Assembly (NCBI GenBank): GCA_016840035.1
Contig: JAEOTC010000031.1
Location: 15,917-79,916 of the forward strand
Source of the DNA: Candidatus Hodarchaeota archaeon
GTDB lineage: Archaea > Asgardarchaeota > Heimdallarchaeia > Hodarchaeales > Hodarchaeaceae
DNA length: 64,000 nt
Direction: 5' to 3'
The notes under the pieces are model-generated. The model did no database searches. It was not told the DNA's origin and saw only the letters and a list, made by a program, of their open reading frames with translations. Positions 15,047 to 59,631 of this stretch are shown here, in pieces. Position 1 is the first letter of the stretch, and each line of letters begins with the position of its first letter. Made by a program: the position numbers and the translations under genes.

Positions 15047-18000
15047 TTGGTACATATCAAAGAAATTAGGATGACCGGTTGGAAATCATATGGACCCGGT
15101 ACTGTCCGAATGCCTCTTGCGAAGGGATTTACGGTTATTGTTGGGCCAAATGGGAGTGGAAAATCCAATTCTATTGATGCTGTTAACTTTTGTCTAGGTG
15201 CTCTCTCTAAAAAGAGTATGCGAGCAGATAAGATGGTAGGCCTCATCTATAACGGAATTGGAGGCAAAAGAAAGTCAGAAAAGGCATTTGTTGAAATTGT
15301 TTTTGATAATGCTGACTTTGCCATCCCTATAAGAGAAAAAGAAGTTATTGTAAGTCGAGAACTAAAAACCAATGGCTCAGGAACTTATAGACTGAATGGT
15401 AAAAGAACCACTCGGACTGATATTTTAGATAAACTTAGAATTGCAGGTATTGATGTCGTTAATAGTTATAATATTATTGCTCAAGGGCAAGTCGGCGAAA
15501 TTGTTGGAATGAATCCAAATGAGCGACGCCAAATGATGGAAAATCTTGCTGGCGTCGGCCAATTTGATACGAAGAAGCAATCTGCTCTATCAGAATTAGA
15601 AGAAGCAAATAAGAGAATGGATGAGCTTCAGCTCCTTGTAAATGAAGTCGCAAAGCGTGTGGAATCTCTTCGAAAGGAAAAACAAGATGCTGAAAGGTGG
15701 AGTCAACTAGACTCTGAAATTTTAAATCTTAAGGCCCTCCTAATTTCATATTCATTTCACACCAATAATCGGGCATTGGTAAAGTTTGATGAGGATATTG
15801 CATCAATCCGCAGTAATCAGGAACAATTTGTAACCGAGCGATCACAGATTGATACAAACGTAGAAGAAGTCACCGAGAAAATTCGGACCCTTGAAGATTC
15901 ATTAATTCGTGTTGAAACTTCACTAAAGGAGATCAGGACTTCCGCAGAAGAAAAGAATATTGAAAAAACAAAAGTTCAGGAAAAGGCTGAATATAATAAA
16001 AAGACAATTAAATCGAATGAGAAACGAATAAAGCAGTTAGAATCACGTTCTGAAGAAATTCAGAAGAAAATTGAAGATGATAGTAATACGAAAGAGGAAC
16101 TCTTACAGAAAAAAGACGAATTAGTCGAGCGGATAGAACAGATTCAAAATGATAGAACTTCTCTTGAAGAGGATCTTGAACTAAAAAATCAGGAATATGA
16201 CGAAATCAAGGGAGAATTTGAAGACGGAGAGAGACGTTTAAAGATTGAAAATGATAGATTAACAAAAACTCAGGTCTCCTTTGAAGTATCACAAAATATG
16301 GTTAATGCTTTTCAAAATAATGTTGATGAATATCAACGACGGCAATCAGAAGCAGAAGAACAGATTAAATCAGCTTCAGAAAGAGCTGAAGAACTTAAGA
16401 TTCAAATTGAAGAAGAAAATACTCAACAAACAGAAGCATCTGGGAAATTAGAGGAAATCGAAACTAAAAAATTGAATTTAGAAACTCAAATTGAGAATAT
16501 CGATGATCAGGTAAGAGAATTAAGTGACAAACAACTAGTTTTAAAGGCAAAAATTGAAACGATATCTTCCTTCGTTAAATCAGAAGCAGGAAAAGAGAAT
16601 CCAGCGGTATCCTATATTAATGGGAAGAAAAATGATGGCAATATTGCTGGAGTTCTTGGTGAATTCCAAAATTTGTCTGATGAAGGAATTACTCTTCCTC
16701 CAGAAGTTGGCCATCTGTCTGATGCAATAATAACTGATACCATTGAATCTAGTTTAAACTGTATAAATCTTTTAAAAGAACATTCAATAGGTGCTGCGAA
16801 TTTTATTCCTCTTGAAAAATTCAAACTTAAAAAAACTGATAATTTCTCAAATATAGTGAAGAAAGTTAGAGAACAGAATCAAGTCGTTACATCATTATCA
16901 GAAGCTGCTAATCTTTGGAAAAAACATAGTTCCACTTTATCAACCGCTGATGGTGACATTTTTTACTCGAACGGAATAATTTACGGAGGATTTCATCTAC
17001 TTTCTGCTCAAGCCTCCGTTGATTCGCTTGATTTAGAGATGGGCCAAATCACTTCTGAACTTGAGGAATATAAATCTAAGTTGAAAGAAGAAAAGGAAAA
17101 CCAGAAAAAACTTCTGGGAATAGAAAAAGTGATTATTTCCTCAATAGAGAAACTCGAAAAAAGTATTCAAGGAGCTACTGTTCAGCTAAATCAACAAGAA
17201 AGTGAAATTAAACTATATACCGAGAATCAACAGAGTATTGAGGGTGAACTTGATCCATTAAAGCAAAAGCTTGAAGAACGTTTATTGGAAAGGGATAAAC
17301 AAAAACAGGAAATGGATCACCACGAGCAGAATCTTGAAGTTATCGGGGAAGAAGTAAGAAGTATTGAAGAGAGACTAGAAGCTGCAGATACAAGACCGTT
17401 ATTAGAGAAAATGAATCAAATAGAACAAAAGTTAGGAAAAAGTCAAGGTCAGTTAAGTGGTATCGATTCAAGAATCGAAAGTCTCGAAACACAGAAAGAA
17501 GAAAGATCTGGGCGTTTAACTGAGACAAAAACTGAAGTTAACACAATCAAGGTTGAAACAGCTAATTTAGAAGGAGAAATTCAAGTCCTGCATGAACAAG
17601 TTGATCAGTTTAATTCCGATTTAGAAAAGATTCTAGAAAATGAAGAATCTCTCTCGACAGAGATAAAGGATTATAAATCCGATCTATCAACTCAAAAGAA
17701 ATACCAAGGACAATTAATCAAGGATAAGGAACGATTAAATGAAAAAATCTCGAAAGATGAGGAGAAAGTAACTGAAATCAAATTACAACGGGAACGAATA
17801 GCTGTAGAAACAGAAAAATTACAGAGTGAGGCATTGGATTCACAGATAGAAATTATGCCAGAAGATGCAGAAGAAATACAAAAAGTAAACGAGCAAAAAA
17901 TTAATTCTGAAATAAATCGAAAATCAGATGAAAAGAAACGGCTAGAACCTGTAAATATGCGTGCTTTGAAGGAATTCCAATCAGAAAATTCAAGATACAT

Positions 18001-45452: not shown

Positions 45453-46019
45453 GTGGTTCTTATCTTGTCCGCACCAAACGATATTCTATTTGAAATCCCT
45501 CATTATAGTCAATACAAAATTGTTGTCGCTGGCGACGCATTAGTCGGAAAAACACAACTTGTTTCCGTCTTTACTAAACGTGATTTTGAACATAAACCCA
45601 CTGCTGGAGCTGATATCTCTTTTATTAAGCTTACAAGTCCAAGTGAAGGAAAAAGTACTACTACAGCTATTTTTTGGGATCTCTCTGGACAACCTGCCTT
45701 CCACAAAGTTCGCCCGATTTTCTATGAAGGAGCTCATGCTGTAATCTACGTTTTTGACATTACCAGGGAAAGCACGGTACTTTCTCTTCCCAGTTGGTTT
45801 AAAGAAGTAAAAAAAGTACTTCCAGATAGTCCAGCTGTGTTGATTGGTAATAAAGTAGATTTAGAAGGCGATCGACAAGTTAGTGACGATATTGGACAAA
45901 GATTCGCTGATAAGATGCATGCTCAGTACTTCCCTACATCTGCAATCCAGAATAAAGGTGTGGTTGTAGCTTTTGCATCCGCTATTAGACGTGCTGTTTC
46001 ATATCGAGATCTAAGTTAA
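45453..46019 (+). CDS. Rab-like small GTPase
   Basis: GDALVGKT, PTAGADI, WDLSGQ, FYEGA, NKVD, TSA. Confidence 0.92.
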   Translation: MVLILSAPNDILFEIPHYSQYKIVVAGDALVGKTQLVSVFTKRDFEHKPTAGADISFIKLTSPSEGKSTTTAIFWDLSGQPAFHKVRPIFYEGAHAVIYVFDITRESTVLSLPSWFKEVKKVLPDSPAVLIGNKVDLEGDRQVSDDIGQRFADKMHAQYFPTSAIQNKGVVVAFASAIRRAVSYRDLS

Positions 46020-46030
46020 TGGTGATAATC

Positions 46031-46699
46031 TTAATTTAATTGCTTTATCAATTCAGCAATCCGAGAATTAATATTCTTTAGCCTATTTGAACTTAATAGA
46101 TCAATATAGGAGATATGGTTTTTATCCTCATTCGTGTAATACTTCCAATTGGCTGCATACGGGTCACAAATGAATCCTTTTTTCGCCAATTTTTTTGTTA
46201 ATTGGCTAATAGTCCTTATCAGTTGAAGATCATCCTGTATTGTATCACCCTGAACTTCTTCAACGATTAGAGTAGGAAATTCTCTCTCGAAAGCTTCAAT
46301 TTTGGCAATTCCAATTACTTTTGGGGTGATAAACCGATACTTCGGTATTTCAGGCTCTAAATTGATTTTTTTGAGAGTAGATAAAAAATCATTGATACAA
46401 AAATAATGAATAAGTAATTGTGTGAGATGGCGAGAATAGTAAGGTTTGTACATCAATCTACCAACTTGTTCAGACGGAAAACTCCACCCAAAAAGAACGC
46501 TGGAACCTCCTGGATAAAATCGTGTCCCAATTAGTTTTTTCCCGAGTTTTTCTTTAATTATTTCGATTTTCTCGGGATTAAGAAATTGACCACGTGAGAA
46601 CTGAACAACACTCTCAACTAATTCAAGGTTTTTTTGGAGTGCATAGTAGGAATAGTTATTCTTAAATTCAGGAAGGATGCTAAATGTTGGGGGACACAT
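46031..46699 (-). CDS. atypical protein-kinase-like protein (RIO/Bud32/Kdo-kinase-like fold)
   Basis: In kinase order: Gly loop PGGSSVLF, beta3 Lys LMYKPY, TPKVIG, hinge LIVEEVQG, catalytic loop CDPYAAN (DxxxxN), metal-binding YIDL. Confidence 0.68.
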   Translation of the reverse strand: MCPPTFSILPEFKNNYSYYALQKNLELVESVVQFSRGQFLNPEKIEIIKEKLGKKLIGTRFYPGGSSVLFGWSFPSEQVGRLMYKPYYSRHLTQLLIHYFCINDFLSTLKKINLEPEIPKYRFITPKVIGIAKIEAFEREFPTLIVEEVQGDTIQDDLQLIRTISQLTKKLAKKGFICDPYAANWKYYTNEDKNHISYIDLLSSNRLKNINSRIAELIKQLN

Positions 46700-46711
46700 A
46701 TACTCTTTGAC

Positions 46712-48121
46712 CTATACCCAATCTGCCGAGTCTATTTTTGTTGGAAGATATGTACCAGTCATATATCGCCAGTTCTTACTTGCTAGCGCTTGAATTTCTG
46801 CTTTTTGTTTTGTATTCTTCATGATGAGAATTTGCTTTTCCCATTCAGGTCTGGATTTAACAAAATCCTCTTTCAATAAATCATCAGCACGCTTAATGTC
46901 ATTATCTGTCATTTTAATAAGTACGGATTTTGGAATTTGATATTCTTCAATATCAGAAGGTAATAAGCCTAACCACCGAATATCAGGAACCGCTAGCTCC
47001 ACACTCTCAAAGCTTAATGCTTTACTTCCAATGGAATATACCCTTAAGATATCTAGTCCGTATGGATCAGCATCTAAGAATCCTAAAATTGGAATTTTCA
47101 ACTCTTGGTACATTTTCTTAATAAATAGTCTAGTGGCCATATCAGGTTGTCCAGAGGCGGTAATTAGAATACAAGGTACGTAATTAAAGAATTTATCTTC
47201 TGCTAAATCTTGGAAAACTGCATCCTTCTCAATTACGAGAATAAATTCCGCATCGCTTTCAAAATTATCTACTTGATCTAGCATTGGTGTAATCGCGTGG
47301 CCACCTAATCCCTTTGTACAATCGATTTGATCCCCACCTTCTCTGAATGTCAATCTACCAATGACTTTTCCTTTAGCTGTTGCAATGACATTTAATGAAT
47401 TTCTGGACACACGTAATAATGCTCCAAGATCCTCAATTAATCCGTCTGAAACTCTTTGATTTCCAAATAGGTTCACATCACGATAAAATAGATGCCTTTT
47501 TGTGGCGTGTTTATCTGTTGCAAGAATCTCAGTTACATATCTCATTAATCCAGTTAGTTGAACCACACTTTGAACACTACTCAGATGACGAAATTGTCTA
47601 TCAACAACATTACTTCCCAGTAGCACCATTCGTGAATTATTATCATATCCAACATTCTCAGAACTTCGAGATGGAATCCTAAATGCGGCGTTCTTAGGAT
47701 CTTCAGCTATTTCATCCAAAAATTCCAATGCTACTCTATTTAGACGGGATCTTGCTTCTTCTGCTGGAACATTATCTACTTTTAGGATGGAAACAGGTAA
47801 GTCCACTTCGGAATCGGTAACATCTTCCCTAATTTTTCTAAGTCCCGTTAAGTTAATTTTTCGACGAATCTGTAAAACTACGTCTCCTTCTTCCGTCATA
47901 TCCCACAATTTAGAAATGTTCTGTTTCGTTAGGACTTCAAAGGTTTTTGACTTCTTCAAACCGTAAAAAATCTGTAATTTTTCAGATTTAAGGCCAAGAG
48001 TACTCTTAATAAGCCCAATAATTCCTTGAATTGTATCTTTTTGTTCCATCTCAACTTTTATTACTTTATTTGTAAAAGAATAGTCTTCTAAAACAATATT
48101 ATATTTACGTTTCTCGGACAT
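46712..48121 (-). CDS. top6A: DNA topoisomerase VI subunit A (Spo11 family) with N-terminal extension
   Basis: ATKRHLFY catalytic Tyr motif, Toprim VIEKDAVF, GQPDMATR, DADPYG, KAEIQAL; 469 aa. Confidence 0.93.
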   Translation of the reverse strand: MSEKRKYNIVLEDYSFTNKVIKVEMEQKDTIQGIIGLIKSTLGLKSEKLQIFYGLKKSKTFEVLTKQNISKLWDMTEEGDVVLQIRRKINLTGLRKIREDVTDSEVDLPVSILKVDNVPAEEARSRLNRVALEFLDEIAEDPKNAAFRIPSRSSENVGYDNNSRMVLLGSNVVDRQFRHLSSVQSVVQLTGLMRYVTEILATDKHATKRHLFYRDVNLFGNQRVSDGLIEDLGALLRVSRNSLNVIATAKGKVIGRLTFREGGDQIDCTKGLGGHAITPMLDQVDNFESDAEFILVIEKDAVFQDLAEDKFFNYVPCILITASGQPDMATRLFIKKMYQELKIPILGFLDADPYGLDILRVYSIGSKALSFESVELAVPDIRWLGLLPSDIEEYQIPKSVLIKMTDNDIKRADDLLKEDFVKSRPEWEKQILIMKNTKQKAEIQALASKNWRYMTGTYLPTKIDSADWV

Positions 48122-48122
48122 T

Positions 48123-51100
48123 TCAATTTCCTCCCATGTAAGAGTCTAATTGACCCAGAACATCTGTTTTTCTACGTAAACGTATATTTGATCGTATTTT
48201 TTTGATTTTCGCGGCCGATAATCCATGTGTTTTCTTCAAATCATCATCAGGCCAGTAAATAAAATCAATTATCCTCGTTACCCCTTTCTTTACTAATTCT
48301 TGAGCCGATGGTATTGGAAGCTCTGCTAATTTTACAACAGGTGTTTCTAGGTCAGAGATACAGGCATTCAATAATTTCCCTGGTACTAACTCATTAGGTA
48401 TTAACTCCGCATACCTTTTGCCATAGAAATACAAATCCTCAATATTTGTAATTCCAAACTCACCTAATGGTTCGTAGTATTGCTCAGAGAGGCGGATAAA
48501 ATTCTGGATTGGTGTTCCGAGATTCTTCTTACGTTTCAGGTCTGTCAGATTAACCTTTCTATATTTAGAAATTTCGTATCTCTTAACTTCAAGAATTTCT
48601 GCTAATTCATCCTTATTCCAGAATAAAAACTCTATGATCGAAGTCAACCCCACATTAAATAGGAGTGGGATCTTTTCAGGAAAAGTTTCCTTTACAAGGG
48701 GTAATACCGCTACAGGTTTTTCTAATACACGTTTGACTCCATCGATTGCTGGTATAAGGGATTTTGGGCATCTTTCTAAATCTAGTCTAAAGTACAGATC
48801 AATAACGTTATCAACGCCAAGTTCCTGGATTTTTGAGAGTTGATTGGGAGTGAAAGCTCGCAGAGATGATAGTTTTACCCTGAACTCTGACTCTGTTTTT
48901 TTGTGTGTTAAAATATCTACTAAATTTACCGAGTTCCTGGCAAAATTATATGTTTCCTCGGATAATAAATTAGTTGGTCCTTCTAATTGAGAAAATTCAG
49001 TCTGAATTAGATTATAAACTGATGTAATACCGTTGAACGCAAGTGGAACTACATTAGAGGAGGGTACAAGTGAGTAGTAAGCAAGTGATGAGTTCAAGGC
49101 ATCTCGTAGACCATTTAATCTAGATTTAAATTGGTCAGATGCATCGATTGTTTCGATCTCTATGAAGAGAAGATCTTCTAAAGTATTAACATTATGAGAC
49201 GACAATTCATCAAAATCAATAAACCCAGCCTCAACGACACTAGATATAGATATTTCAGTGTCAAATGTACTTCCTGTGGCCTTAAAATCAAAGCTTTGCT
49301 TAAGCTTATTCACCTCTTCAGTCTTCATCCGTAAAATAGTTGATATTCCATCATTAGGCCCAGAAAACCAAGTGGAGAGAGTATTAATCCCCGAATTTGA
49401 CAATTTTCTTAACTCTGCAACTTGAAAATCTTCTGAAAGTCTGTTTATTGGACTATCAAAAATTTGGAGAAATTCGGTTACTCCTTCTAGTTGGGTAACA
49501 ATTGAACTAAACATAATTAATGATTGTAGTGAAGTAATATTCTTGTCAGAAAGACTTTCGATTGTTTTAGAGGGTAATTGATCCGAGAATTTTGTTAAAG
49601 GTATTGCTTCTTCCTCTAGCTTCTTCATTAGTGTAGCAAATGTAATATCGTTGAGAACAGAGCGTATTTTTGGGAAGGATGCCGAAACAAGTGATGCCAA
49701 ATCTCGATGGGTTAATTTAATGAAGTCACCTACATGGAGCACAGATTTTTCCTTAAGCGGGAAGAACCATTCTACTGGAAGTGAGGGAATAAAACTGATA
49801 GGTATTGATAATAGTTGTTTTAGCTCCTCAAAATTTAAGGTGTCTAACTCCGAGTAAAAAGTTTCAGGAGACTGGTCTAATATCGTAGTCAACTTTTCTA
49901 TGCCAGTGGAATAAGCATCTCTTATTGTATCTATTTTCTTTTGTTTTAATAGTTTTACACGTTCATTATTTGCCCCCAGAACTAGGTATAGGGGAACAGA
50001 TAAGATTGTAAATAGTTCACTCCACAGATCAGATGTAATTCGGATTATTTTCTCTTTTTGTTTTTTCAAGAATAATGTCTCATCAATGCTGGCTAGTAAG
50101 TCATATATGGTTCTTAATTTCTTATCCTTGATTTTGGTTAAATAATCAGATGGAAATTTTATTTTATCCACAGAAAGTCCTTTTAATAAACTTATTATCT
50201 CATTGATTCGAATAGATTCCTGAATTTTCTTTATTCTATCAATTTCAACCCCAGTTTTCTGATTCAAATCCTCCCATGAATCTATCATCAAATCAAAAAT
50301 TGTAAATATGTTCTTTTTATGAAATGCGTTAACTTCAGATGAATTAATGATTGTACTTGTCTCAATAGGCATTTCAAGTACTAATCGAGCATCGAGTATG
50401 GTTTGCCATTCCAGATCACTATCCTCTATCGTCTTAGGAGTAGCTGTATAATAGAGGTCAGCCAAACTTTCGATTCCATATCGGGCAAATTTCCTAACGG
50501 TGTTTTTATCGAATAATGAGATTTTAGTTAAGGGGATCATCTTTTCCTCCTTAATTGTCTTGATATTTGTAAAGTTCAAATCTTGTTTCATTGTTTTCAG
50601 TACTTCTGAATCTATCTCAATTATATTAGTAAGTTGTTCATCTGAAGTGGTTAAAAAGTCGTAAATTGAGATAATATTCTCTTCAGCCAAAGAACGGTTT
50701 TGTTTTCTAGATAGACCTTCGATAATAGAAGCAGAGGTCTCTGTAGACTCCCTCAATTTTAGGAGATTGACTTTCTTCCGAAGATTCTCGACATTCTCTG
50801 GAGGTGTATCCAAAACATTTGACAGTTCGTTTGGCGATGATATCAAAAAGCGTAGAATTGTGTCAAGTCTATAATTAACAAGTTTATCCACATATTTCTG
50901 GGGAATAATACCGTTGAGATAAGTGATAGGGAGATCAAGTGATTCAACACTTTTCTTGACATAGGGAAAATCTAAATCATCTTCCTCATCTAACATATCC
51001 TCATTTGCACTAAAGTACAGATCCTCTACAGTTTCGATACCATAATTAGTTAACGTCGAAATTGTCTTACGATTGTAACCAGCAACTTGTTCTAAGGGCA

Positions 51101-54100
51101 TACCATGCTCTTTGATTGCAACAGCTTGTTTGAGTTCATCTATTTGTTTAAGTGTAACTTTTAGAATGGTTTTTAGCTCATTCGGAGGCCAGTAAATTAG
51201 TTTAATGATCTGATCAATTCCATTATTAGCTAAACCCTCCAAACCATCATGAGAAACCCGTATTTGCGATTTATCAGAACTACCCTGTAATTGAATCATA
51301 GCAATTGGGGTTTCTAGTATTCTTTGATATCGTTCAATTTTTTTCCATTTAACACCCATTACTCCGAATGTTTGCTTATCCGCACAAAAATAAACGCTTT
51401 CTACTGTGGAATATCCCCTAGATTTTAAAGTTTTCATTTCAGCAGCAGTAAATACCCCGAGGTCTATCAGAGCCATTCCTTCGGAAAATTTTGGTATGTT
51501 GTTGGTTAATTCTGATACGTAATCTGCATCCCGGCCTAATATTCCAGCAATTTCATCTGGAGACCATGTGAGAAAATCAATGAATGACTTTATCCCACCA
51601 GCTCTCAAACTATTTACCCATCTTGGCCGAATATGCGATAAACGGGTTATAGGGGTATTAAAGAGCTCAGTTAGCCTATTAGTTTCTTTTTGGCTTAAGT
51701 TTAGATCTTTTATCTCTTCGTCCTCATAAGGAAGACTGTAATATAACTCTTGGACGCTCAGGCCTGATTCAAATAATCTAACCCATGATTTTTGTTCTAG
51801 ATTATTCTTTAGGATGGAAATCGGACGTTTCTTCATCTCGATTTGATTTTGTATTCCCTCGAAAGTAATTTTGCTTTTAATATCCTCAATAATTTTATAA
51901 GAAATCCCTGATTTTCTGTGTAAATCATAATCTGGCCAGATCAGGAAATTAATAACTTTAGATATTCCCAAATGATGCAGTAGCCTATAGTATTTACTGG
52001 GGATTGGTAAATAACATATAGGTTCATTTAATTGCCCTAACATCTCTTTAACTTTATCAGATAGGATTTTGGGCTTGATCTTGTCTTGTGAGACGACTGA
52101 AATCAACTCTTCAAGACACAAAATATCTAAAGACTCTAATTTACCGGCAATAGAATTATCTAGAAGACTAATTGGTGTTCCATAAGTTCGTTTTATTGTT
52201 TCTAATACTAGTGGGTCCATTCCTTCTATTTTTCGTAATTCCTCTGTCGAATGACTAATGAAGTCAAAAATTGTAGATATTCCATTTTGAATTAGAACTC
52301 GTTCTAACTCTAAATCGAGCCAATATGCTCTTTTAATAGGTACTGGATCAAACGCTGCATTAATCTCTTCAAGAATTTCATCTTGTTTAAGTAATATTAA
52401 AGAATCTATCAACCCTCGTACAATGAGTAGCTCCTTTTCATCAGTTAATAGAAAATCAATGAAACCTTGAACATTTAATCTTTCCAAATCAGATATCATT
52501 GATTTCTGAATTCCTGGGATTCTAAATAATGATGATTCATCATTATACGACTGTAGAATCTCCTTCAGTTTATTCTTAGACTGAACAATTAAATTATCTA
52601 TTAGCTCGTTCAATTCTGCAAGCTTTTCAGAGGGCGAATTCAGAAAATCCTTGATTTTCGAGATTTTTCTACCCCGCAATTTGGGTGTAACCTTGTAATC
52701 CATCCAGTCAAACGTCGAAGCACCTATCACCTTTTCTGGATCTATATATTCTCCTTTCACCCCCGCACGAATTTCTTCTTTTGCGTTTTCAATCAAACGA
52801 ATTGCTAATTTTGGCATGGAGGATAGTTTTTCAGGGAACGATACGAAGTAGCCTAAAATAGTACTGATTTTTGCACTTTTCAAAACCTTTTCTATATCGC
52901 TTGTTAACCAGGGGAGAAGATTCAAGGCGAAAGTATCTTCAGAAGCAAAATTGAGAAATTCATCAATTGCTTTAAGCTTTGTCTCGTAAATAAGCTTCTC
53001 AGGAAAATCGTCCACTTCACGAAGCTGTGATGTTGGTGTAGAGAAGAAATCAAATGTGTTTACTATCCATCGTTTATTAAAAGCCTTATGGATCGTGTTA
53101 CTCGTTCTATACTTCGAAAAATCTCGCTCAATTCCTTTAGAGAAGAATTCAAAATCCCGAATTATTGGAGAACGATATGTTTGTTCTTGTTTAGTTACAG
53201 TCTTTCTTACGATTGCATCTATCCTTTCCACTGACATCCCAGTGATAGCATTTAGTTCTGGGACAGGTGTTCGTAAAAAATGGTAGATTGTTTGGATGCC
53301 ATTTTCTACAAGTTTAAGGTGAATATCCATAGGAAGCCATTCACCAACTGTAGATATTTGAGGACTAGGAGGGTACGATCTTCTTACTAGTCGTGGGATG
53401 GCTGATGCAAGCGCTTTCTGTAATTTGGAAATCTCCTCTCCTGAAGATAACAAATAGGGAGAATTTTCGGTTGTTAAAATGTGTGATAAGTTTTGAATTA
53501 CCCTTGGGGCTGCGCTCTCAAATCGAGATTGTCTCTGTCTTTCCCTTCTTTCTCGTTCGGCTCTTCCAAGATGTTGACCTAATCCCCTTGCTAATTTTTT
53601 CAAGACACGGTTGATCTGATTACGAAGTTCATCAACATCTGCGATATACTCTTTGCTTGTCTCAGGAAAAGGAATTTTGGAGGAAACCACTGATACTACA
53701 ATTGCAATAGGTGCTTTGTTGATATTAATCTTATAATTCTTCCAGTTCATTTTCTGAACACATTTAGAGATAATATCATTTCCCGCACCAAACAGTAAGG
53801 GGATTCTATTGGCAAAACGGTAAATTTTTGGACTTGCACCCCTAGCTCCTTCCTCTTTTGTTAAATTCGGACCACCATAAGCTAAAGCTGCCTCTACAAT
53901 AAAAGGATGACCACTATAGGCAGAAATTTCACCAAAAGTAGCTTTTACAAATTGAGGGGATAATTCTTTACTGATCCCCTTTTCCAATAATTCATATCCA
54001 AGGGGAGATAATGAATCGCCACTAGGTCGTTTAAAAGAGAAATATTTCTTTTCTTTCTTCTTTGTTTTATCGCGTTCAGGGACTGTGAATCCTTCATGAA

Positions 54101-55079
54101 CGATTCTTCGAATTGCAGTGGCGCTAAGTTTCTTAGGGTCTGTTTGATGCTCAATCTTAACAAAATCTAAAAAATCACGAGCTGTCTTAGGGCCAATTCC
54201 TTGAAAATGATCTTGTAAGAAAATCTCCATTGTCTCACTGCTAGTGACACTTAATTCCCGTTTAAATTGCGTAATATCTGTTCCCCAAGGATGAACCTTC
54301 GCAATTTGAGGATAGTTTGGCATCTCCTCGACAACACGTTCCAATTCAATTGGAGATTCAGAATCAGGATACTGGATGTAAAAACTAGCATATGGAGTAA
54401 TCATTGCTAGTTGAGAGAAATAGTCGTAAATATAACGAGAAGCGAGATTCCAAGCTCCAGTGAAGGTGACAGATACTTCAGTACCAGATTCATCTATCGC
54501 TTCTGCGGTATTCTGCGGAATTTCACGTTGAGTGAGTATTATCGGCTCATTCTCGGCTAAGTTAATCATCAACTCATGATAACTTGTAAAATCTTCGTTT
54601 ATATATTTGGATTTAATGACTAGAGGTAAGTCCACTGATGACATCGCATTTAATAATACCATCTTCGCCCCTAGACCGAATCGTCCTCGTGATTGTCGAG
54701 CTCCATAATTACTGCCTGTTAGAACTCTACCAAAAAGAGGAGGTATAAATTCTGACTGGATTCCACTCCCATTATCCTTGACAGTTAATCTGAGGAAGTC
54801 TAGTTTTTCAGAGGACTCGAAAGAGCTTATATTGAGTAGCTTTGCGATTTCTTCTTTCTTTAATTTCTTAATTGTGACATGGAGTTCTGGTAAATGACCC
54901 ATCCTTTCTGCAGCATCTAGTCCATTTTCAACTAATTCACGAACACTTGTGAAGACTACCCTCATACTGTTATCGAAACCCGCGATTGCTTTGTTATCCT
55001 GGAAAAAGTCTGCTGCGGATCTTCTTACTACCTTTTCACTAGCAATTCCTTTCTTATTCGACTTTGAGGCAGGTACCAT
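48123..55079 (-). CDS. top6B: giant DNA topoisomerase VI subunit B with ~1750-aa C-terminal repeat region
   Basis: AGFDNSMR, GHKL ELVENGLDA, DNGSG, QSRGRFGLG, SGTEV; H2TH FQGIGPKTA; transducer GHPFIVEA, RFANRIPL, SKEYIA; single 2318-aa ORF. Confidence 0.93.
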   Translation of the reverse strand: MVPASKSNKKGIASEKVVRRSAADFFQDNKAIAGFDNSMRVVFTSVRELVENGLDAAERMGHLPELHVTIKKLKKEEIAKLLNISSFESSEKLDFLRLTVKDNGSGIQSEFIPPLFGRVLTGSNYGARQSRGRFGLGAKMVLLNAMSSVDLPLVIKSKYINEDFTSYHELMINLAENEPIILTQREIPQNTAEAIDESGTEVSVTFTGAWNLASRYIYDYFSQLAMITPYASFYIQYPDSESPIELERVVEEMPNYPQIAKVHPWGTDITQFKRELSVTSSETMEIFLQDHFQGIGPKTARDFLDFVKIEHQTDPKKLSATAIRRIVHEGFTVPERDKTKKKEKKYFSFKRPSGDSLSPLGYELLEKGISKELSPQFVKATFGEISAYSGHPFIVEAALAYGGPNLTKEEGARGASPKIYRFANRIPLLFGAGNDIISKCVQKMNWKNYKININKAPIAIVVSVVSSKIPFPETSKEYIADVDELRNQINRVLKKLARGLGQHLGRAERERRERQRQSRFESAAPRVIQNLSHILTTENSPYLLSSGEEISKLQKALASAIPRLVRRSYPPSPQISTVGEWLPMDIHLKLVENGIQTIYHFLRTPVPELNAITGMSVERIDAIVRKTVTKQEQTYRSPIIRDFEFFSKGIERDFSKYRTSNTIHKAFNKRWIVNTFDFFSTPTSQLREVDDFPEKLIYETKLKAIDEFLNFASEDTFALNLLPWLTSDIEKVLKSAKISTILGYFVSFPEKLSSMPKLAIRLIENAKEEIRAGVKGEYIDPEKVIGASTFDWMDYKVTPKLRGRKISKIKDFLNSPSEKLAELNELIDNLIVQSKNKLKEILQSYNDESSLFRIPGIQKSMISDLERLNVQGFIDFLLTDEKELLIVRGLIDSLILLKQDEILEEINAAFDPVPIKRAYWLDLELERVLIQNGISTIFDFISHSTEELRKIEGMDPLVLETIKRTYGTPISLLDNSIAGKLESLDILCLEELISVVSQDKIKPKILSDKVKEMLGQLNEPICYLPIPSKYYRLLHHLGISKVINFLIWPDYDLHRKSGISYKIIEDIKSKITFEGIQNQIEMKKRPISILKNNLEQKSWVRLFESGLSVQELYYSLPYEDEEIKDLNLSQKETNRLTELFNTPITRLSHIRPRWVNSLRAGGIKSFIDFLTWSPDEIAGILGRDADYVSELTNNIPKFSEGMALIDLGVFTAAEMKTLKSRGYSTVESVYFCADKQTFGVMGVKWKKIERYQRILETPIAMIQLQGSSDKSQIRVSHDGLEGLANNGIDQIIKLIYWPPNELKTILKVTLKQIDELKQAVAIKEHGMPLEQVAGYNRKTISTLTNYGIETVEDLYFSANEDMLDEEDDLDFPYVKKSVESLDLPITYLNGIIPQKYVDKLVNYRLDTILRFLISSPNELSNVLDTPPENVENLRKKVNLLKLRESTETSASIIEGLSRKQNRSLAEENIISIYDFLTTSDEQLTNIIEIDSEVLKTMKQDLNFTNIKTIKEEKMIPLTKISLFDKNTVRKFARYGIESLADLYYTATPKTIEDSDLEWQTILDARLVLEMPIETSTIINSSEVNAFHKKNIFTIFDLMIDSWEDLNQKTGVEIDRIKKIQESIRINEIISLLKGLSVDKIKFPSDYLTKIKDKKLRTIYDLLASIDETLFLKKQKEKIIRITSDLWSELFTILSVPLYLVLGANNERVKLLKQKKIDTIRDAYSTGIEKLTTILDQSPETFYSELDTLNFEELKQLLSIPISFIPSLPVEWFFPLKEKSVLHVGDFIKLTHRDLASLVSASFPKIRSVLNDITFATLMKKLEEEAIPLTKFSDQLPSKTIESLSDKNITSLQSLIMFSSIVTQLEGVTEFLQIFDSPINRLSEDFQVAELRKLSNSGINTLSTWFSGPNDGISTILRMKTEEVNKLKQSFDFKATGSTFDTEISISSVVEAGFIDFDELSSHNVNTLEDLLFIEIETIDASDQFKSRLNGLRDALNSSLAYYSLVPSSNVVPLAFNGITSVYNLIQTEFSQLEGPTNLLSEETYNFARNSVNLVDILTHKKTESEFRVKLSSLRAFTPNQLSKIQELGVDNVIDLYFRLDLERCPKSLIPAIDGVKRVLEKPVAVLPLVKETFPEKIPLLFNVGLTSIIEFLFWNKDELAEILEVKRYEISKYRKVNLTDLKRKKNLGTPIQNFIRLSEQYYEPLGEFGITNIEDLYFYGKRYAELIPNELVPGKLLNACISDLETPVVKLAELPIPSAQELVKKGVTRIIDFIYWPDDDLKKTHGLSAAKIKKIRSNIRLRRKTDVLGQLDSYMGGN
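48170..53365 (-). repeat. about 28 degenerate protein-level tandem repeats (~55-70 aa, HhH-like) within top6B
   Basis: Recurrent pattern xPI..L.........L...GI.TI.DFL......L..I.G.....I..I, e.g. TPVVKLAELPIPSAQELVKKGVTRIIDFIYWPDDDLKKTHGLSAAKIKKI and VPIKRAYWLDLELERVLIQNGISTIFDFISHSTEELRKIEGMDPLVLETI. Counted by eye. Confidence 0.85.
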
Positions 55080-57587
55080 TTAAGCATCTCCCTTGTTAGA
55101 ATTACCACTAGCTATTAACGCAACGGATGAAATTTTCACACCACTCTCCTTTTCCAAGCGCATTAAAGTGACTCCAGAGGTTGCACGGCCTATAGCACGT
55201 ATGTCTTTCATCTGCATCTGTATTAATTTCCCATCATTTGCCACCATTAATAGAAGATCGTCCTCTGTAACACTTTTAACTGCTATCACATCACCATTTC
55301 GTTCTGTTACTTTAATATTGATAACTCCTTTTCCATTACGTCGTGTTACACGATATTTATCAAAAGTAGAGCGTTTTCCATAACCATTTTCGCAAACAGT
55401 TAATAAAGTTCGATTTTCATCGACAATAGCTAAGTCTACAACAGAATCATCTGAATTCAGTCTAATTCCCATAACTCCCAAACTGCTTCTCCCGACTACA
55501 CGCACATCTGACTCTTTGAAACGAATGGCCTTTCCCTTCTTAGTAGCTAAAATGATTCCTCGATTTCCATCTGTGACCTTTGCACCAATTATGTTATCAT
55601 CTTCCCGTAGTTTTTGTGCAATAATCCCAGTAGAGCGAATATTTTCGTATTCTGAAAGAGAAGACTTTTTTATTAACCCATTTTTGGTCGCTAAAATCAG
55701 GTAATGGTCTGGAACGAATTTTTTAACACGAATCATCCCTACAATCTTATCACTCCTATCCATTCTAAGTAAATTAACAATATTAACCCCTTTTGTCACT
55801 CTTTGCCTAGAAATGGGAATTCCAAATCCACGAACACGATAAACACGCCCTTGCACAGTGAAAAATAAGATGGTGTCATGAGTTGAAGCAACAATCATTT
55901 CCTGTAGAAAATCATCCTTTCCGATTTCCATTGATTTGATTCCTTTTCCCCCACGGTGCTGTGAATTATACACATCAGTAGATATTGATTTAATATATCC
56001 ATTTGATGTTAATGTAATCACTATATCTTCTTCTGTGATGAAATCCTCTTCAGTCTTATCTGTCCAATTTTCATATCCATCAGAGTCATCTAAAACAATC
56101 ATTGTTCTTCTAGGATCACCATATTTCGATTTAATAGTATCAATTTCGGATACAATAATCCCCATGATCCGTTCTTCACTGGCTAATATATCTTCATAAT
56201 CCTTTATTGCTTGAAGAACTTCTTTATATTCTTGTAAAATTTTATCCCGATCAAATCGAGTTAAACTTCTGAGTGGTAACGCGAGAATATCCTTCGCTTG
56301 GATTTCAGACAAAGAAAACCTGTTTATCAAAGCGGATTGCGCTTCAGATGCGTTAGAAGATCCTCTGATGAGCTCCACTACATCATCAAGATTCTCAACA
56401 ACAATTTTTCTCCCCTCCAAAATATGTGCTCTCTCTCTGGCCTTCTTTAGATCGAACTCAGTTCTTCTCACAACAACTTCATGCCTATGATCAATGAATT
56501 GAGTAAGAAGCTGCTTCAAATTCAGATTTTTTGGTCTTATCTTGACCTCATCACCAACTTTGGCATCCACAAGAACCATATTCTTGATAGAATAAGAGGT
56601 CTGCATCGGTGTAAATTTAAATAAGCGATTTAACACTACTTCAACATTAGCAGATTGTTTTAGGTTGACAACAATACGTGTACCACGAATGATATTGGAT
56701 TCATTTTTCACGCTACCAATCTCTGGAAATTTTCCTGCTTCCTTCATCCGTTCAATTATATCGACTAAACCACGATGTTCTATCGTATCCTGCCGTTTTA
56801 CTAAATATGGAACCTCAGTAATAATAATGCGAGTTCGATTCTTCTTTTCCTCTATATCGTACTTTGCACGTAAGATTACATTACCAGTTCCAGTATGATA
56901 AGCCCGTTTGATCCCTCCAGTTCCAAAGATTACACCTCCAGTCGGAAAATCAGGACCTGGGATGTACTTCATTAACTCTGATATACTAATATCTGGGTCT
57001 TTTATAACAGCTTTCACTCCGTCTAAAACCTCACTTAGATTATGAGGAGGCATGGAGGTAGCCATTCCCACGGCAATTCCCATAACTCCGTTAATTAGAA
57101 GATTAGGAATTTTTGCTGGAAGCACTACTGGTTCCTTATCTAAACCATCAAAATTGTCAATTAGATCCACAGTATTCTTGTTGATGTCCATTAACAGTTC
57201 ATTTGCGATCTCCGCCATTCTTGCTTCCGTATATCGTTGTGCAGCTGCAGGTTGTCCGTCCATACTGCCAAAATTTCCTTGACCTTGGATCAACGGATAT
57301 CGGAGGGAAAATGGTTGTGCTAATCGTACTAATGCATCGTAAACGGCATTTCCTCCATGAGGATGATATTTTGCACTCGTTTCCCCGATCGTACGTGCAC
57401 ATTTTCTGGGTGGTCTATTATGAGTCAAACCCAAGTTGTGCATAGCCCACAAGATTCGCCTATGTACAGGTTTTAAACCATCTCTTACATGTGGAAGAGC
57501 TCTACTTGTAATTACAGACATCGAATACTCCAAATAGCTTTTGGACATAGTTTTTTCAATAGGAGTGATTCTAATATTACTACTCAT
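55080..57587 (-). CDS. gyrA: DNA gyrase subunit A
   Basis: RALPHVRDGLKPVHRR, AAQRYTEARM (catalytic Tyr), GIAVGMAT, GyrA-box QHRGGKG and C-terminal pinwheel blades; ATG 57587 preferred. Confidence 0.96.
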   Translation of the reverse strand: MSSNIRITPIEKTMSKSYLEYSMSVITSRALPHVRDGLKPVHRRILWAMHNLGLTHNRPPRKCARTIGETSAKYHPHGGNAVYDALVRLAQPFSLRYPLIQGQGNFGSMDGQPAAAQRYTEARMAEIANELLMDINKNTVDLIDNFDGLDKEPVVLPAKIPNLLINGVMGIAVGMATSMPPHNLSEVLDGVKAVIKDPDISISELMKYIPGPDFPTGGVIFGTGGIKRAYHTGTGNVILRAKYDIEEKKNRTRIIITEVPYLVKRQDTIEHRGLVDIIERMKEAGKFPEIGSVKNESNIIRGTRIVVNLKQSANVEVVLNRLFKFTPMQTSYSIKNMVLVDAKVGDEVKIRPKNLNLKQLLTQFIDHRHEVVVRRTEFDLKKARERAHILEGRKIVVENLDDVVELIRGSSNASEAQSALINRFSLSEIQAKDILALPLRSLTRFDRDKILQEYKEVLQAIKDYEDILASEERIMGIIVSEIDTIKSKYGDPRRTMIVLDDSDGYENWTDKTEEDFITEEDIVITLTSNGYIKSISTDVYNSQHRGGKGIKSMEIGKDDFLQEMIVASTHDTILFFTVQGRVYRVRGFGIPISRQRVTKGVNIVNLLRMDRSDKIVGMIRVKKFVPDHYLILATKNGLIKKSSLSEYENIRSTGIIAQKLREDDNIIGAKVTDGNRGIILATKKGKAIRFKESDVRVVGRSSLGVMGIRLNSDDSVVDLAIVDENRTLLTVCENGYGKRSTFDKYRVTRRNGKGVINIKVTERNGDVIAVKSVTEDDLLLMVANDGKLIQMQMKDIRAIGRATSGVTLMRLEKESGVKISSVALIASGNSNKGDA

Positions 57588-57609
57588 CTTTAATACGTCC
57601 CTCAAGTCA

Positions 57610-59631
57610 TTAGATATCTAAATTTTGCACTTCCAACGCGTGAGTCTCGATGAACTCTCGCCTAGGGGCAACTTCCTCTCCCATCAACGTAACGAACATT
57701 CGTTCTGCATCAATAAGATTTTTTCTTGTAACCTGGAGAAGGGTTCGTTTTTCAGGATCCATTACAGTTTCTCGTAGCTGAATGGGATTCATTTCACCAA
57801 GACCCTTGAATCGACTGATCTCAGGTCTACCACCCCAAGTTTGAATAATCTCGTCTCGTTCTTGTTCGGAAAGTACATAAATTTCCTTATTCCCTTTTTT
57901 AACTCGGAATAATGGCGGTTGAGCGATGTAGAGATAACCTTCATCAATTAATTCGGGCATATATCTGAAGAAAAAAGTTAATAGTAAGCAGACGATATGA
58001 TGACCATCGATATCGGCATCCATGAGTAACACAATCTTATGATAACGAACTTTCTCTATTTTGAAATGTTCCTTATAACTCGCTCCAATAGCGCGAATAA
58101 TTTCAAGAATTTCCTTGTTTTTCATTGCCTTTTCTAATCGGGCTTTTTCAACGTTAATGACTTTTCCCCGAAGGGGTAAAATCGCTTGAAACTCTGAAAA
58201 ACGTCCTTCTATTGCACTACCCCCTGCAGAATCACCTTCGACAAGGAATAACTCGCGTTTAGCTGGATCTGAAACAGCGCAATCCACTAATTTTCCTGAT
58301 CCTTTTCCTTGTGTTTTTCTGACAGCTTCTCGAATTTGTCGAAACCTCATTCGAAGAGTTGCAGCAGCTTCACACTTTTCAATAATACTCCTGGAACTAT
58401 CAGGATGTTCATCAAGAAACTTAAGCACATTTTCATATACACAACTCTCTACAACCCCTTTCACTTCGCTATTGCCTAATTTACTTTTTGTTTGGCCTTC
58501 AAATTGAGGATTCATTATTTTTAATGAGACTACGGCAACCAGTCCTTCACGTACATCATTTCCAGTGAATATTGACCTTTTTTCCTTTAATCCCTTCTTT
58601 AGATGAGAATTTTTAATGAGTTGCTCATTCTTCAATACATATGCATTTAATGCTCTTGTAAGGCCTGATTTGAATCCAGATAAGTGTGTTCCCCCATGCC
58701 TTGTATTTATATTATTAGTAAAAGTGTTAATTAAATCTCTCTCTGATCGATCATAAGCTAGGGCAACTTCTACTTGCATTTTCTCAATATTTTCGTCAAA
58801 ATAAGGCATATCATCGTGAACACGATTAGTTACGAGTTGATCAACATAAGCCTTAATTCCCCCATCAAAATGGAAAATCCATTCATTTACTGGCAAATCT
58901 TCGTCAGTAACCTCATCATCAACTTCTACATCAGGACTTTCATCTTGAACAGATTCAGTTTGTGGTTCGGAATCTGAAGGTTTATGCTTTCTTTCATCAA
59001 TTAGTGTTATTGTAAGCCCTTTATTCAAAAAGGCTAATTCACGTAGACGATTACGAATCGTAACAACTTCAATTTGCGTTACTTCGAAGATCTCAGGGTC
59101 TGGAATGAAGGTTATATGAGTACCACTCTCGTAATCCCATTCCTCCTCAATAGTAATGACACCATGAGAAATTGTTTCACCTCTCACGTACTCTTGCATC
59201 TGAACTAAGTTGTCTCTTTTAACTTTTACCTGCATCCAACTAGATAATGCATTCACAACAGCTATCCCAACTCCATGGAGTCCACCACTAACCTTGTAAG
59301 ACTCATGATCAAATTTCCCCCCTGAATGCAGTCGTGTGGTAACAAGTTCCAGAGAAGAAATATTATAATCGGGGTGAATTTCAGTAGGTATTCCCCTACC
59401 ATTATCTTGAATAGTAATTGATTCTTGTCCATGCTCTGTCTGACTTAGTATCACTTTAATACTATCACAAAACCCAGCCATTGCTTCATCGACTGAATTA
59501 TCGACAATTTCCCAAACCAAGTGATGAAGCCCATTTTCATCAATACTTCCAATATACATAGCAGGTCGGCGACGAACCGCTTCAAGACCTTCTAGAACCT
59601 GTATACTACTTGCACCATATTCACTTGACAA
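57610..59631 (-). CDS. gyrB: DNA gyrase subunit B
   Basis: LEGLEAVRRRPAMYIG, EIVDNSVDE, GGLHGVG, VEGDSAGG, PLRGK, DADIDG, FKGLGEM, terminal NLDI. Confidence 0.96.
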   Translation of the reverse strand: MSSEYGASSIQVLEGLEAVRRRPAMYIGSIDENGLHHLVWEIVDNSVDEAMAGFCDSIKVILSQTEHGQESITIQDNGRGIPTEIHPDYNISSLELVTTRLHSGGKFDHESYKVSGGLHGVGIAVVNALSSWMQVKVKRDNLVQMQEYVRGETISHGVITIEEEWDYESGTHITFIPDPEIFEVTQIEVVTIRNRLRELAFLNKGLTITLIDERKHKPSDSEPQTESVQDESPDVEVDDEVTDEDLPVNEWIFHFDGGIKAYVDQLVTNRVHDDMPYFDENIEKMQVEVALAYDRSERDLINTFTNNINTRHGGTHLSGFKSGLTRALNAYVLKNEQLIKNSHLKKGLKEKRSIFTGNDVREGLVAVVSLKIMNPQFEGQTKSKLGNSEVKGVVESCVYENVLKFLDEHPDSSRSIIEKCEAAATLRMRFRQIREAVRKTQGKGSGKLVDCAVSDPAKRELFLVEGDSAGGSAIEGRFSEFQAILPLRGKVINVEKARLEKAMKNKEILEIIRAIGASYKEHFKIEKVRYHKIVLLMDADIDGHHIVCLLLTFFFRYMPELIDEGYLYIAQPPLFRVKKGNKEIYVLSEQERDEIIQTWGGRPEISRFKGLGEMNPIQLRETVMDPEKRTLLQVTRKNLIDAERMFVTLMGEEVAPRREFIETHALEVQNLDI

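Follow-up and report, generated by a model that had tools for sequence, protein, structure and literature searches.

We analysed a 64,000-nucleotide (nt) stretch of DNA (hereafter, the window) from a Candidatus Hodarchaeota archaeon (GenBank assembly GCA_016840035.1, contig JAEOTC010000031.1, forward-strand positions 15,917 to 79,916) and found that subunit A of its topoisomerase VI, Top6A, begins with an additional domain. Family-wide sequence profiles and predicted structures identify residues 1–88 (window 47858..48121, minus strand) as a true ubiquitin-family beta-grasp domain, here called the ubiquitin-like domain (UBL), that is permanently fused to the DNA-cleaving subunit. The UBL occurs in exactly those families of Asgard archaea in which the partner subunit, Top6B, is giant. 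We favour, with a probability of about 0.55, the reading that it is a fixed structural or protein-contact module, bracing or docking, of a remodelled topoisomerase VI (Topo VI) holoenzyme. The protein varies the architecture of a known enzyme and does not represent a novel type of system.

The fold was assigned from predicted models. AlphaFold2 (AF2) modelling of residues 1–125, based on 15 sequences, placed strands at 6–13, 20–26, 49–55 and 81–87 and helices at 31–42 and 66–78, with predicted local distance difference test (pLDDT) scores of 74–88 in the core. The full-length model, based on 69 sequences, has a mean pLDDT of 85.9 and a predicted template-modelling score of 0.83; both the UBL and the segment 81–100 lie at 85–92. 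Secondary structure assigned by DSSP to the AF2 models (E6–13, E19–26, H31–42, E49–55, E62–63, H69–76 and E81–87) follows the beta-beta-alpha-beta-beta-alpha-beta order of the ubiquitin-like beta-grasp fold. The best 50 Foldseek matches in the PDB are all beta-grasp proteins, including the PB1 domains of p67phox and NBR1, the UBL of USP15, the UBX domain of FAF1, ubiquitin and SUMO, with template-modelling scores of up to 0.78. VIA-align, which was run independently of Foldseek over 48,161 representative chains, found the PB1 domains of NBR1 (Z 11.3, root-mean-square deviation (rmsd) 2.2, 81 aligned residues) and Par6 (Z 11.1), the UBL of TBCE (Z 10.1), the UBL of SMCHD1 (6mw7_A; Z 8.8, rmsd 1.9, 18% identity) and the ULD of SATB1 (Z 8.2). 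Owing to its full second helix the domain is nearest in shape to PB1, whereas in sequence it is nearest to ubiquitin. The original prediction, made from the window's sequence alone, had proposed a beta-grasp domain of ubiquitin or PB1 type at this N terminus, and the AF2 models, both structural searches and the profile match to ubiquitin bear it out.

Ubiquitin homology is a property of the family rather than of the window's sequence in isolation. The segments on which the original prediction was built are all present: YNIVLED at residues 7–13, the stretch from NKVIKV to IFYG at 18–54 and VVLQIRR at 81–87, within an interval of the window that corresponds exactly to residues 1–88. Its alignment to ubiquitin stood in part: HMMER returned the same register (query 15–71 to ubiquitin 7–63), with a shift of one residue at the IFYG/IFAG end, but the match on its own does not exceed chance. 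Searched singly against mono-ubiquitin with phmmer, the window sequence reaches E values of only 0.3–0.8 (about 12–13 bits, not significant alone), and in Pfam it misses the PF00240 threshold, the sole match being Ubiquitin_3 (PF14836; E 0.078, 13.3 bits against a cut-off of 24). Lower E values against polyubiquitin were rejected as evidence, because they sum nine copies of one weak match of about 5 bits.

A profile of 43 orthologous Top6A N termini (A3), by contrast with the single sequence, matches mono-ubiquitin with E values of 3e-6 to 7e-5 over ubiquitin residues 7–74, nearly the whole chain, and it is this profile that makes the likeness significant. Individually, 15 of the 43 orthologues match PF00240 (best E 2e-7) and 9 match Rad60-SLD (PF11976); PF00240 was already present in the precomputed annotation of orthologues P0069 and P0070. 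Thus the orthologous group shows ubiquitin-family homology, although the window's own sequence does not reach the Pfam gathering threshold. Against 1.8 billion representative sequences, the same profile returned 1,019 hits, and polyubiquitins dominate the best 150 listed. The closest Top6A homologues (best 120 listed) share 53–97% core identity and are 460–523 amino acids (aa) in length, except for truncated gene calls. Hits of 93–219 aa were considered as stand-alone or split UBL genes and set aside; they end mid-sequence, continue into Top6A or into unrelated residues, and look like truncated or disrupted gene calls.

In the 69 aligned sequences, all five positions 49–53 of strand beta-3 are hydrophobic, so that both of its faces are apolar. 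F52, which is hydrophobic in 99% of them and does not vary among 16 sequences drawn from five families, aligns with Ile44 of ubiquitin in both HMMER and hhalign (with Phe45 in the register of the original prediction). The last strand leads directly into Top6A (RRKINLTG) and has no Gly-Gly; the UBL therefore cannot be conjugated as a modifier and is an integral domain, as had been proposed. Its charge is mildly basic (median isoelectric point 9.45, net +5); some UBLs are acidic. Charge as a pointer to DNA binding was rejected because the isoelectric point varies from 5.3 to 10.4 between families.

Comparative data indicate that the N-terminal segment is coding. A GGAGG ribosome-binding site, read from the sequence, lies at 48130..48134 on the minus strand, 8 nt upstream of the top6A ATG and within the last codons of top6B, and residues 12–20 (EDYSFTNKV) are invariant or nearly so in 15 close orthologues, upstream of the first internal Met, which is itself not conserved. 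In pairs unsaturated at synonymous sites, the ratio of nonsynonymous to synonymous substitution rates (dN/dS) of the UBL is 0.32 (L017/L025), 0.14 (L019/L022) and 0.16 (L019/L024), compared with 0.02–0.03 for the core. The correctly spaced site, the conserved residues before any internal Met and the low dN/dS together argue for the called start and against initiation further downstream, the outcome by which the original prediction would have fallen. The UBL is under purifying selection and yet evolves fast, because its dN/dS is well below 1 while its dN is 4–7 times that of the core; between families, identity is 12–20% for the UBL and more than 45% for the core.

Behind the UBL, the protein is predicted to be an otherwise complete, catalytically intact Top6A of the Asgard/eukaryote type. 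The gene is an intact open reading frame (ORF) of 469 aa (46712–48121, minus strand), in which residues 119–469 and the stop codon (46712..47767) constitute the canonical core defined by Pfam and by alignment to a solved structure. This core contains the strap helix (120–140), the 5Y-CAP domain with the catalytic Tyr213 and a Toprim domain with E298 and D350/D352, the defining features of Topo VI subunit A and Spo11; Y213, E298, D350 and D352 are invariant or near-invariant in 69 orthologues. Pfam recognizes TP6A_N (PF04406) at residues 186–245 (E 8e-18) and TOP6A-Spo11_Toprim (PF21180) at 293–463 (E 2e-63). The alignment to Top6A of S. shibatae (2zbk_A, 389 aa) begins at query residue 114 and runs to the end (E 1e-60), with its Tyr106 opposite Y213; that to Top6A of M. 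mazei (2q2e_A, 369 aa) begins at residue 123. Because 2zbk_A aligns only from residue 114, about 105 N-terminal residues have no counterpart in solved Top6As, in agreement with the original estimate of about 100 extra residues.

Only four residues separate the UBL from a helix that other Top6As share. The linker and helix 92–103 (47813..47857, minus strand) are followed by a hinge and the motif DLPVSILKVD (residues 104–118; 47768..47812), which reads FPYGVLxV in other families and in which P109 never varies and V115 reaches 99% conservation. The helix is present in both AF2 models. Across the 69 orthologues V89 is hydrophobic in 100% and L91 in 88%, and I94 and L97 are also conserved, all four positions being 88–100% hydrophobic. 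Asgard and eukaryotic Top6As are known to share an additional N-terminal helix, modelled against the Toprim domain (Brinkmeier 2022, PMC9665070). A helix and DLPxG motif that match residues 92–111 are also present in Asgard Top6As that lack a UBL (families f7, f11 and f14, in which alignment starts from query residue 94–106); the UBL is thus an addition ahead of the shared Asgard/eukaryote helix.

We searched 301 genomes of the phylum with the UBL profile, taking as strong a hit with E <1e-14 in an open frame of about 460–506 aa. Families are numbered such that f1 is the window's own genus, f1–f6 and f7 belong to the same class, and f20 lies outside the class and includes Candidatus Borrarchaeum. 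The UBL is present in 19 of 20 genomes of the genus, in five further families of the class and in 3 of 5 genomes of f20. This set of six Heimdallarchaeia families and one Borrarchaeum family contrasts with 23 other Asgard families searched, in which the domain was not found; the profile search was negative in f7 (0 of 11), of the same class, as well as in f11 (0 of 76) and f17 (0 of 19), and in f14 it gave weak matches to small free ubiquitin-like ORFs only. Top6A ORFs of 460–506 aa are conserved in 65 genomes, among which no frame fusing Top6B to Top6A was seen. Other named orthologues with the UBL come from Hodarchaeales, Kariarchaeaceae, Heimdallarchaeaceae and Heimdallarchaeota LC_2. In a maximum-likelihood tree of Top6A cores, all 16 UBL-bearing sequences fall on one side of a single branch (support 100/99), with f20 basal, a topology consistent with a single gain of the UBL.

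The Top6A described here is the only one in the window's assembly (which is 87% complete). Elsewhere, G259, G123 and G235 (f7) and G005 (f11) encode a second, divergent Top6A/Top6B pair with about 30% identity and a Top6B of about 500 aa (for example, G259:C36:9034-10725); multiple pairs have been reported (Feng 2025, PMC12680538).

The partner subunit has been enlarged in the same lineages. Top6B in the window (48123..55079, minus strand; 2318 aa) has a normal GHKL-transducer core of about 520 aa (Pfam Topo-VIb_trans, 1e-50) and a tail of about 1,750 aa composed of helix-hairpin-helix (HhH)-like repeats, seen in summed hits to RAD51D_N and HHH_5. An iterated hidden Markov model found at least 15 HhH-like motifs between residues 586 and 2293, spaced about 60–130 aa apart. 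We surveyed Top6B lengths across Asgard families with the transducer family. Open frames measure 2,311–2,346 aa in the genus, 4,140–4,305 aa in f3, 2,258–4,244 aa in f4, f5 and f6, and 2,286–2,297 aa in f20, compared with about 1,110–1,155 aa in f7 and 490–750 aa in nearly all other families. Hence Top6B is 2,250–4,305 aa in length in exactly the families that bear the UBL, and less than about 1,350 aa elsewhere. Over roughly its first 1,100 residues the tail is collinear with those of f20, f3, f4 and f6 (27–35% identity), whereas the f7 tail is unrelated. Two candidate exceptions were discarded: the f2 frames of 1,323–1,359 aa, which might have passed for intermediates, are cut by contig ends, and the f29 Top6B of 1,353 aa (L037, G240:C93, 2-2140 (+)) has an insertion before the transducer and no tail, beside a Top6A without UBL. 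That insertion includes a Cys-rich CPYC...C..SSC stretch, and the f29 Top6A (410 aa) has an N-terminal tail rich in Lys and Ser.

Downstream of top6B, top6A follows directly in all 17 loci that were extracted; in the window, the top6B stop codon and the top6A start codon have a single nucleotide between them. The genome search and the length survey thus give a positive outcome for a check suggested with the original prediction, co-occurrence of the UBL with a long-tailed Top6B in other genomes. Because both traits trace to one ancestor, their co-occurrence represents one event and joint retention.

We propose that the UBL serves as a fixed contact module as follows. The conserved four-residue linker would tie it to the helix common to Asgard and eukaryotic Top6A. 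Judging from the place that the strap and the N-terminal helix occupy in Topo VI, it would lie at the periphery of the A subunit, beside the A–B junction, where the HhH tail of Top6B would emerge. There it may contact the tail, or else support the A subunit or the A–B junction as a brace, a bracing that would resemble that of the N-terminal UBL of SMCHD1 on its GHKL module. A fixed structural part is suggested by V89 and L91, the conserved hydrophobic residues between the UBL and the helix that follows, and a buried face by the hydrophobic beta-3 strand. Since the domain evolves fast, its apolar sheet face would point to a buried interface that co-evolves within the lineage rather than to a transient contact with a conserved receptor.

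Several points weigh against this reading. Residues 101–110 have a pLDDT of 56, so a hinge remains; contact of the UBL with the core or with Top6B is something we infer, as are its position in the holoenzyme and its binding partner. The basic charge, variable as it is, does not clearly single out DNA or a fixed partner. In sequence the closest relatives are ubiquitin itself, which would fit a role in ubiquitin mimicry as well, and the co-occurrence with giant Top6B, being a single evolutionary gain, offers no independent replication. A complex prediction of the UBL with Top6B residues 517–1400, about half of the tail, scored 0.00 against a mark of 0.32 and counts neither way.

The UBL could instead act as a mimic of ubiquitin that recruits Cdc48/VAT, the proteasome cap, a protein with a UIM or UBA domain or a component of the endosomal sorting complex required for transport to Topo VI, an explanation that we regard as unlikely. 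Through such a handle, Top6A that is covalently trapped on DNA could be extracted or degraded, in the way that eukaryotic cells deal with trapped Top2. The original prediction had named a proteasome/Cdc48 link as one option; nothing found here ties the domain to either. Besides the nearness to ubiquitin proper and the conserved aromatic F52 at the position of Ile44, the ubiquitin system of the genome speaks for it. It comprises a free ubiquitin of 80 aa (G000 C184), which ends in TGG plus three residues, two or three further ubiquitin-like ORFs and, clustered with these, four or five E2 (UQ_con) genes (contigs C184, C3 and C112; loci L006–L009), so that this genome does encode the ubiquitin-fold proteins that the original prediction expected of an Asgard archaeon. 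The Cdc48-binding family UN_NPL4 is matched by 8 of the 43 orthologues, weakly and below threshold (best E 0.0024). A UBL that evolves several times faster than the core and retains as little as 12% identity between families is a poor fit with a highly conserved receptor, however, and residues 55–61 show no FPR, the mark of the loop that UBX domains have between strands 3 and 4; the FAF1 UBX is among the Foldseek matches. The UBL is also not a recent duplicate of the genome's own ubiquitin, a possibility that we rejected: BLASTP found no match, and hhalign aligned the two with E 5e-5 at about 10% identity. The distribution of the UBL tracks that of giant Top6B, whereas other searched Asgard lineages have small free ubiquitin-like ORFs and no UBL. 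The conserved V89/L91 linker, the wholly hydrophobic beta-3 and the fast evolution are likewise at odds with a free-swinging degradation handle. The narrower claim that the UBL connects the sole Topo VI of these eukaryote-related archaea with a ubiquitin-receptor machine, for example Cdc48/VAT or the proteasome, is, in our judgement, rather improbable. If mimicry were nonetheless the correct explanation, ubiquitin-fold-guided removal of trapped type II topoisomerase–DNA adducts would be older than eukaryotes, and the UBL together with the giant HhH tail would be the mark of a Topo VI machine that acts at chromosome scale and is peculiar to the Heimdall group.

Self-association is an equally doubtful alternative, in which one UBL, like PB1, SATB1 or SMCHD1 domains, would pair with another and could thereby reinforce the A–A dimer or, jointly with the HhH tails, connect holoenzymes into higher-order assemblies on DNA. 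PB1 domains rank first among the structural matches (Z 9.7–11.3), including those of the filament-forming NBR1 and p62, and the SATB1 and SMCHD1 matches noted above point in the same direction; Pfam PB1 is also matched by 4 of the 43 orthologues, weakly (E 0.013 or weaker). Type A PB1 domains are characterized by an acidic OPCA motif after beta-3 and type B by a conserved Lys in beta-1. Neither signature was found in the UBL across the 69 orthologues: positions 56–60 are Lys-rich, being 48–75% Lys or Arg, and no position from 5 to 8 in beta-1 has more than 28% Lys or Arg.

We give very little credence to the notion that the UBL is a Ras-binding domain of the Ras-association (RA) or Ras-binding domain (RBD) kind, taking a signal from the small GTPase beside the operon (45453–46019, plus strand; Ras family). 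The ELMO RBD and RalGDS RA domain are matched in fold at Z 8.6–8.8, and one of the 43 orthologues matches RA_2 at E 2e-4. Small GTPases are abundant in Asgard genomes, however, so adjacency is expected by chance. The GTPase (77–94% identity) and the 222-aa ORF beyond top6A (46–83%) also lie after top6A in three further genomes of the genus and are absent downstream in the f3, f4, f6, f20 and f7 loci; a link of the UBL to either gene was therefore rejected clade-wide, because the synteny is confined to the genus. Last, a mis-called start or decaying leftover, suggested only by the weak Pfam score of the single sequence, is already contradicted by the comparative data on ORF conservation, purifying selection, invariant residues before any internal Met and ribosome-binding site, as well as by the high-confidence fold.

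Top6A is the fourth gene of a co-oriented run on the minus strand (46031–59631), with gaps of 0–22 nt, that begins with gyrB (57610–59631) and continues with gyrA (55080–57605), top6B, top6A and, directly after it, the 222-aa ORF (46031–46699), which has no Pfam hit and was called a kinase in the original prediction. On the basis of this orientation and spacing, one operon appears to hold two type II topoisomerases.

A UBL on Top6A is unmentioned in the full-text literature that we searched, which included Villain 2022, PMC9665070, PMC12680538, a 2024 review of DNA topology in Archaea and a 2024 paper in NAR Genomics and Bioinformatics on how Topo VI is distributed across phylogeny (PMC11302465). 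Automatic annotation has already detected the domain, as RefSeq WP_287583880.1 (P0271; Candidatus Borrarchaeum sp., 463 aa), a full-length Top6A orthologue in the 90%-identity cluster of P0069, is named ‘ubiquitin-like protein’. Its cluster mates are named ‘meiotic recombination protein SPO11’ by JGI, and neither name covers the fusion.

The architecture is thus unreported among type IIB topoisomerases. Spo11 descends from Top6A, and no known archaea are more closely related to eukaryotes than Heimdallarchaeia and Hodarchaeales; it is precisely here that the sole Topo VI has been remodelled, with a ubiquitin fold on the cleaving subunit and 1,700–3,800 extra HhH-repeat residues on the ATPase subunit. 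The protein is also an early case of a ubiquitin-fold domain incorporated permanently into a DNA enzyme, and it provides a testable handle on the positioning or regulation of Topo VI in these organisms. Phylogenies of Topo VI that trim the N terminus overlook it.

Several known systems are close to the protein. PB1 domains (NBR1 2g4s, Par6 1wmh and p67phox 1oey) are its best structural matches and, like the UBL, have a full second helix lying between strands beta-4 and beta-5; the UBL differs in having neither OPCA motif nor beta-1 Lys, and sequence profiles favour ubiquitin over PB1. Ubiquitin, including the free ubiquitin of the genome, belongs to the same family by profile; relative to it, the UBL is highly divergent, has a longer second helix, ends without Gly-Gly and is fused to an enzyme. 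The Borrarchaeum orthologue WP_287583880.1 has the same architecture under a RefSeq name that omits its Top6A function. In SMCHD1 (PMC6620310; 6mw7), the UBL is needed for dimerization of the GHKL module. It shares with the present case an integral, non-conjugated N-terminal UBL on a subunit of a GHKL-type DNA machine, although that UBL is on the ATPase chain and ours is on the DNA-cleaving chain, and there is no evidence of common descent. Canonical archaeal Top6As (2zbk_A; M. mazei 2q2e_A/9o0g_A; M. jannaschii 1d3y_A) align end to end with residues 114–469 (E 1e-60 to 3e-33) and share the strap helix, the 5Y-CAP domain with its Tyr, the Toprim domain and the adjacency to top6B, the extra N-terminal residues here comprising the UBL and one helix; Top6B is about 3–4 times the length of that in Asgard families without the UBL. 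Asgard/eukaryote-type Top6As are treated in PMC9665070 and PMC12680538, both of which report the extra helix in eukaryotic Top6A/Spo11 too and neither of which mentions a UBL: helix 92–103 and the DLPxG motif match the extra helix of f7 and f14 Top6As, and the protein described here has the UBL placed four residues before that helix.

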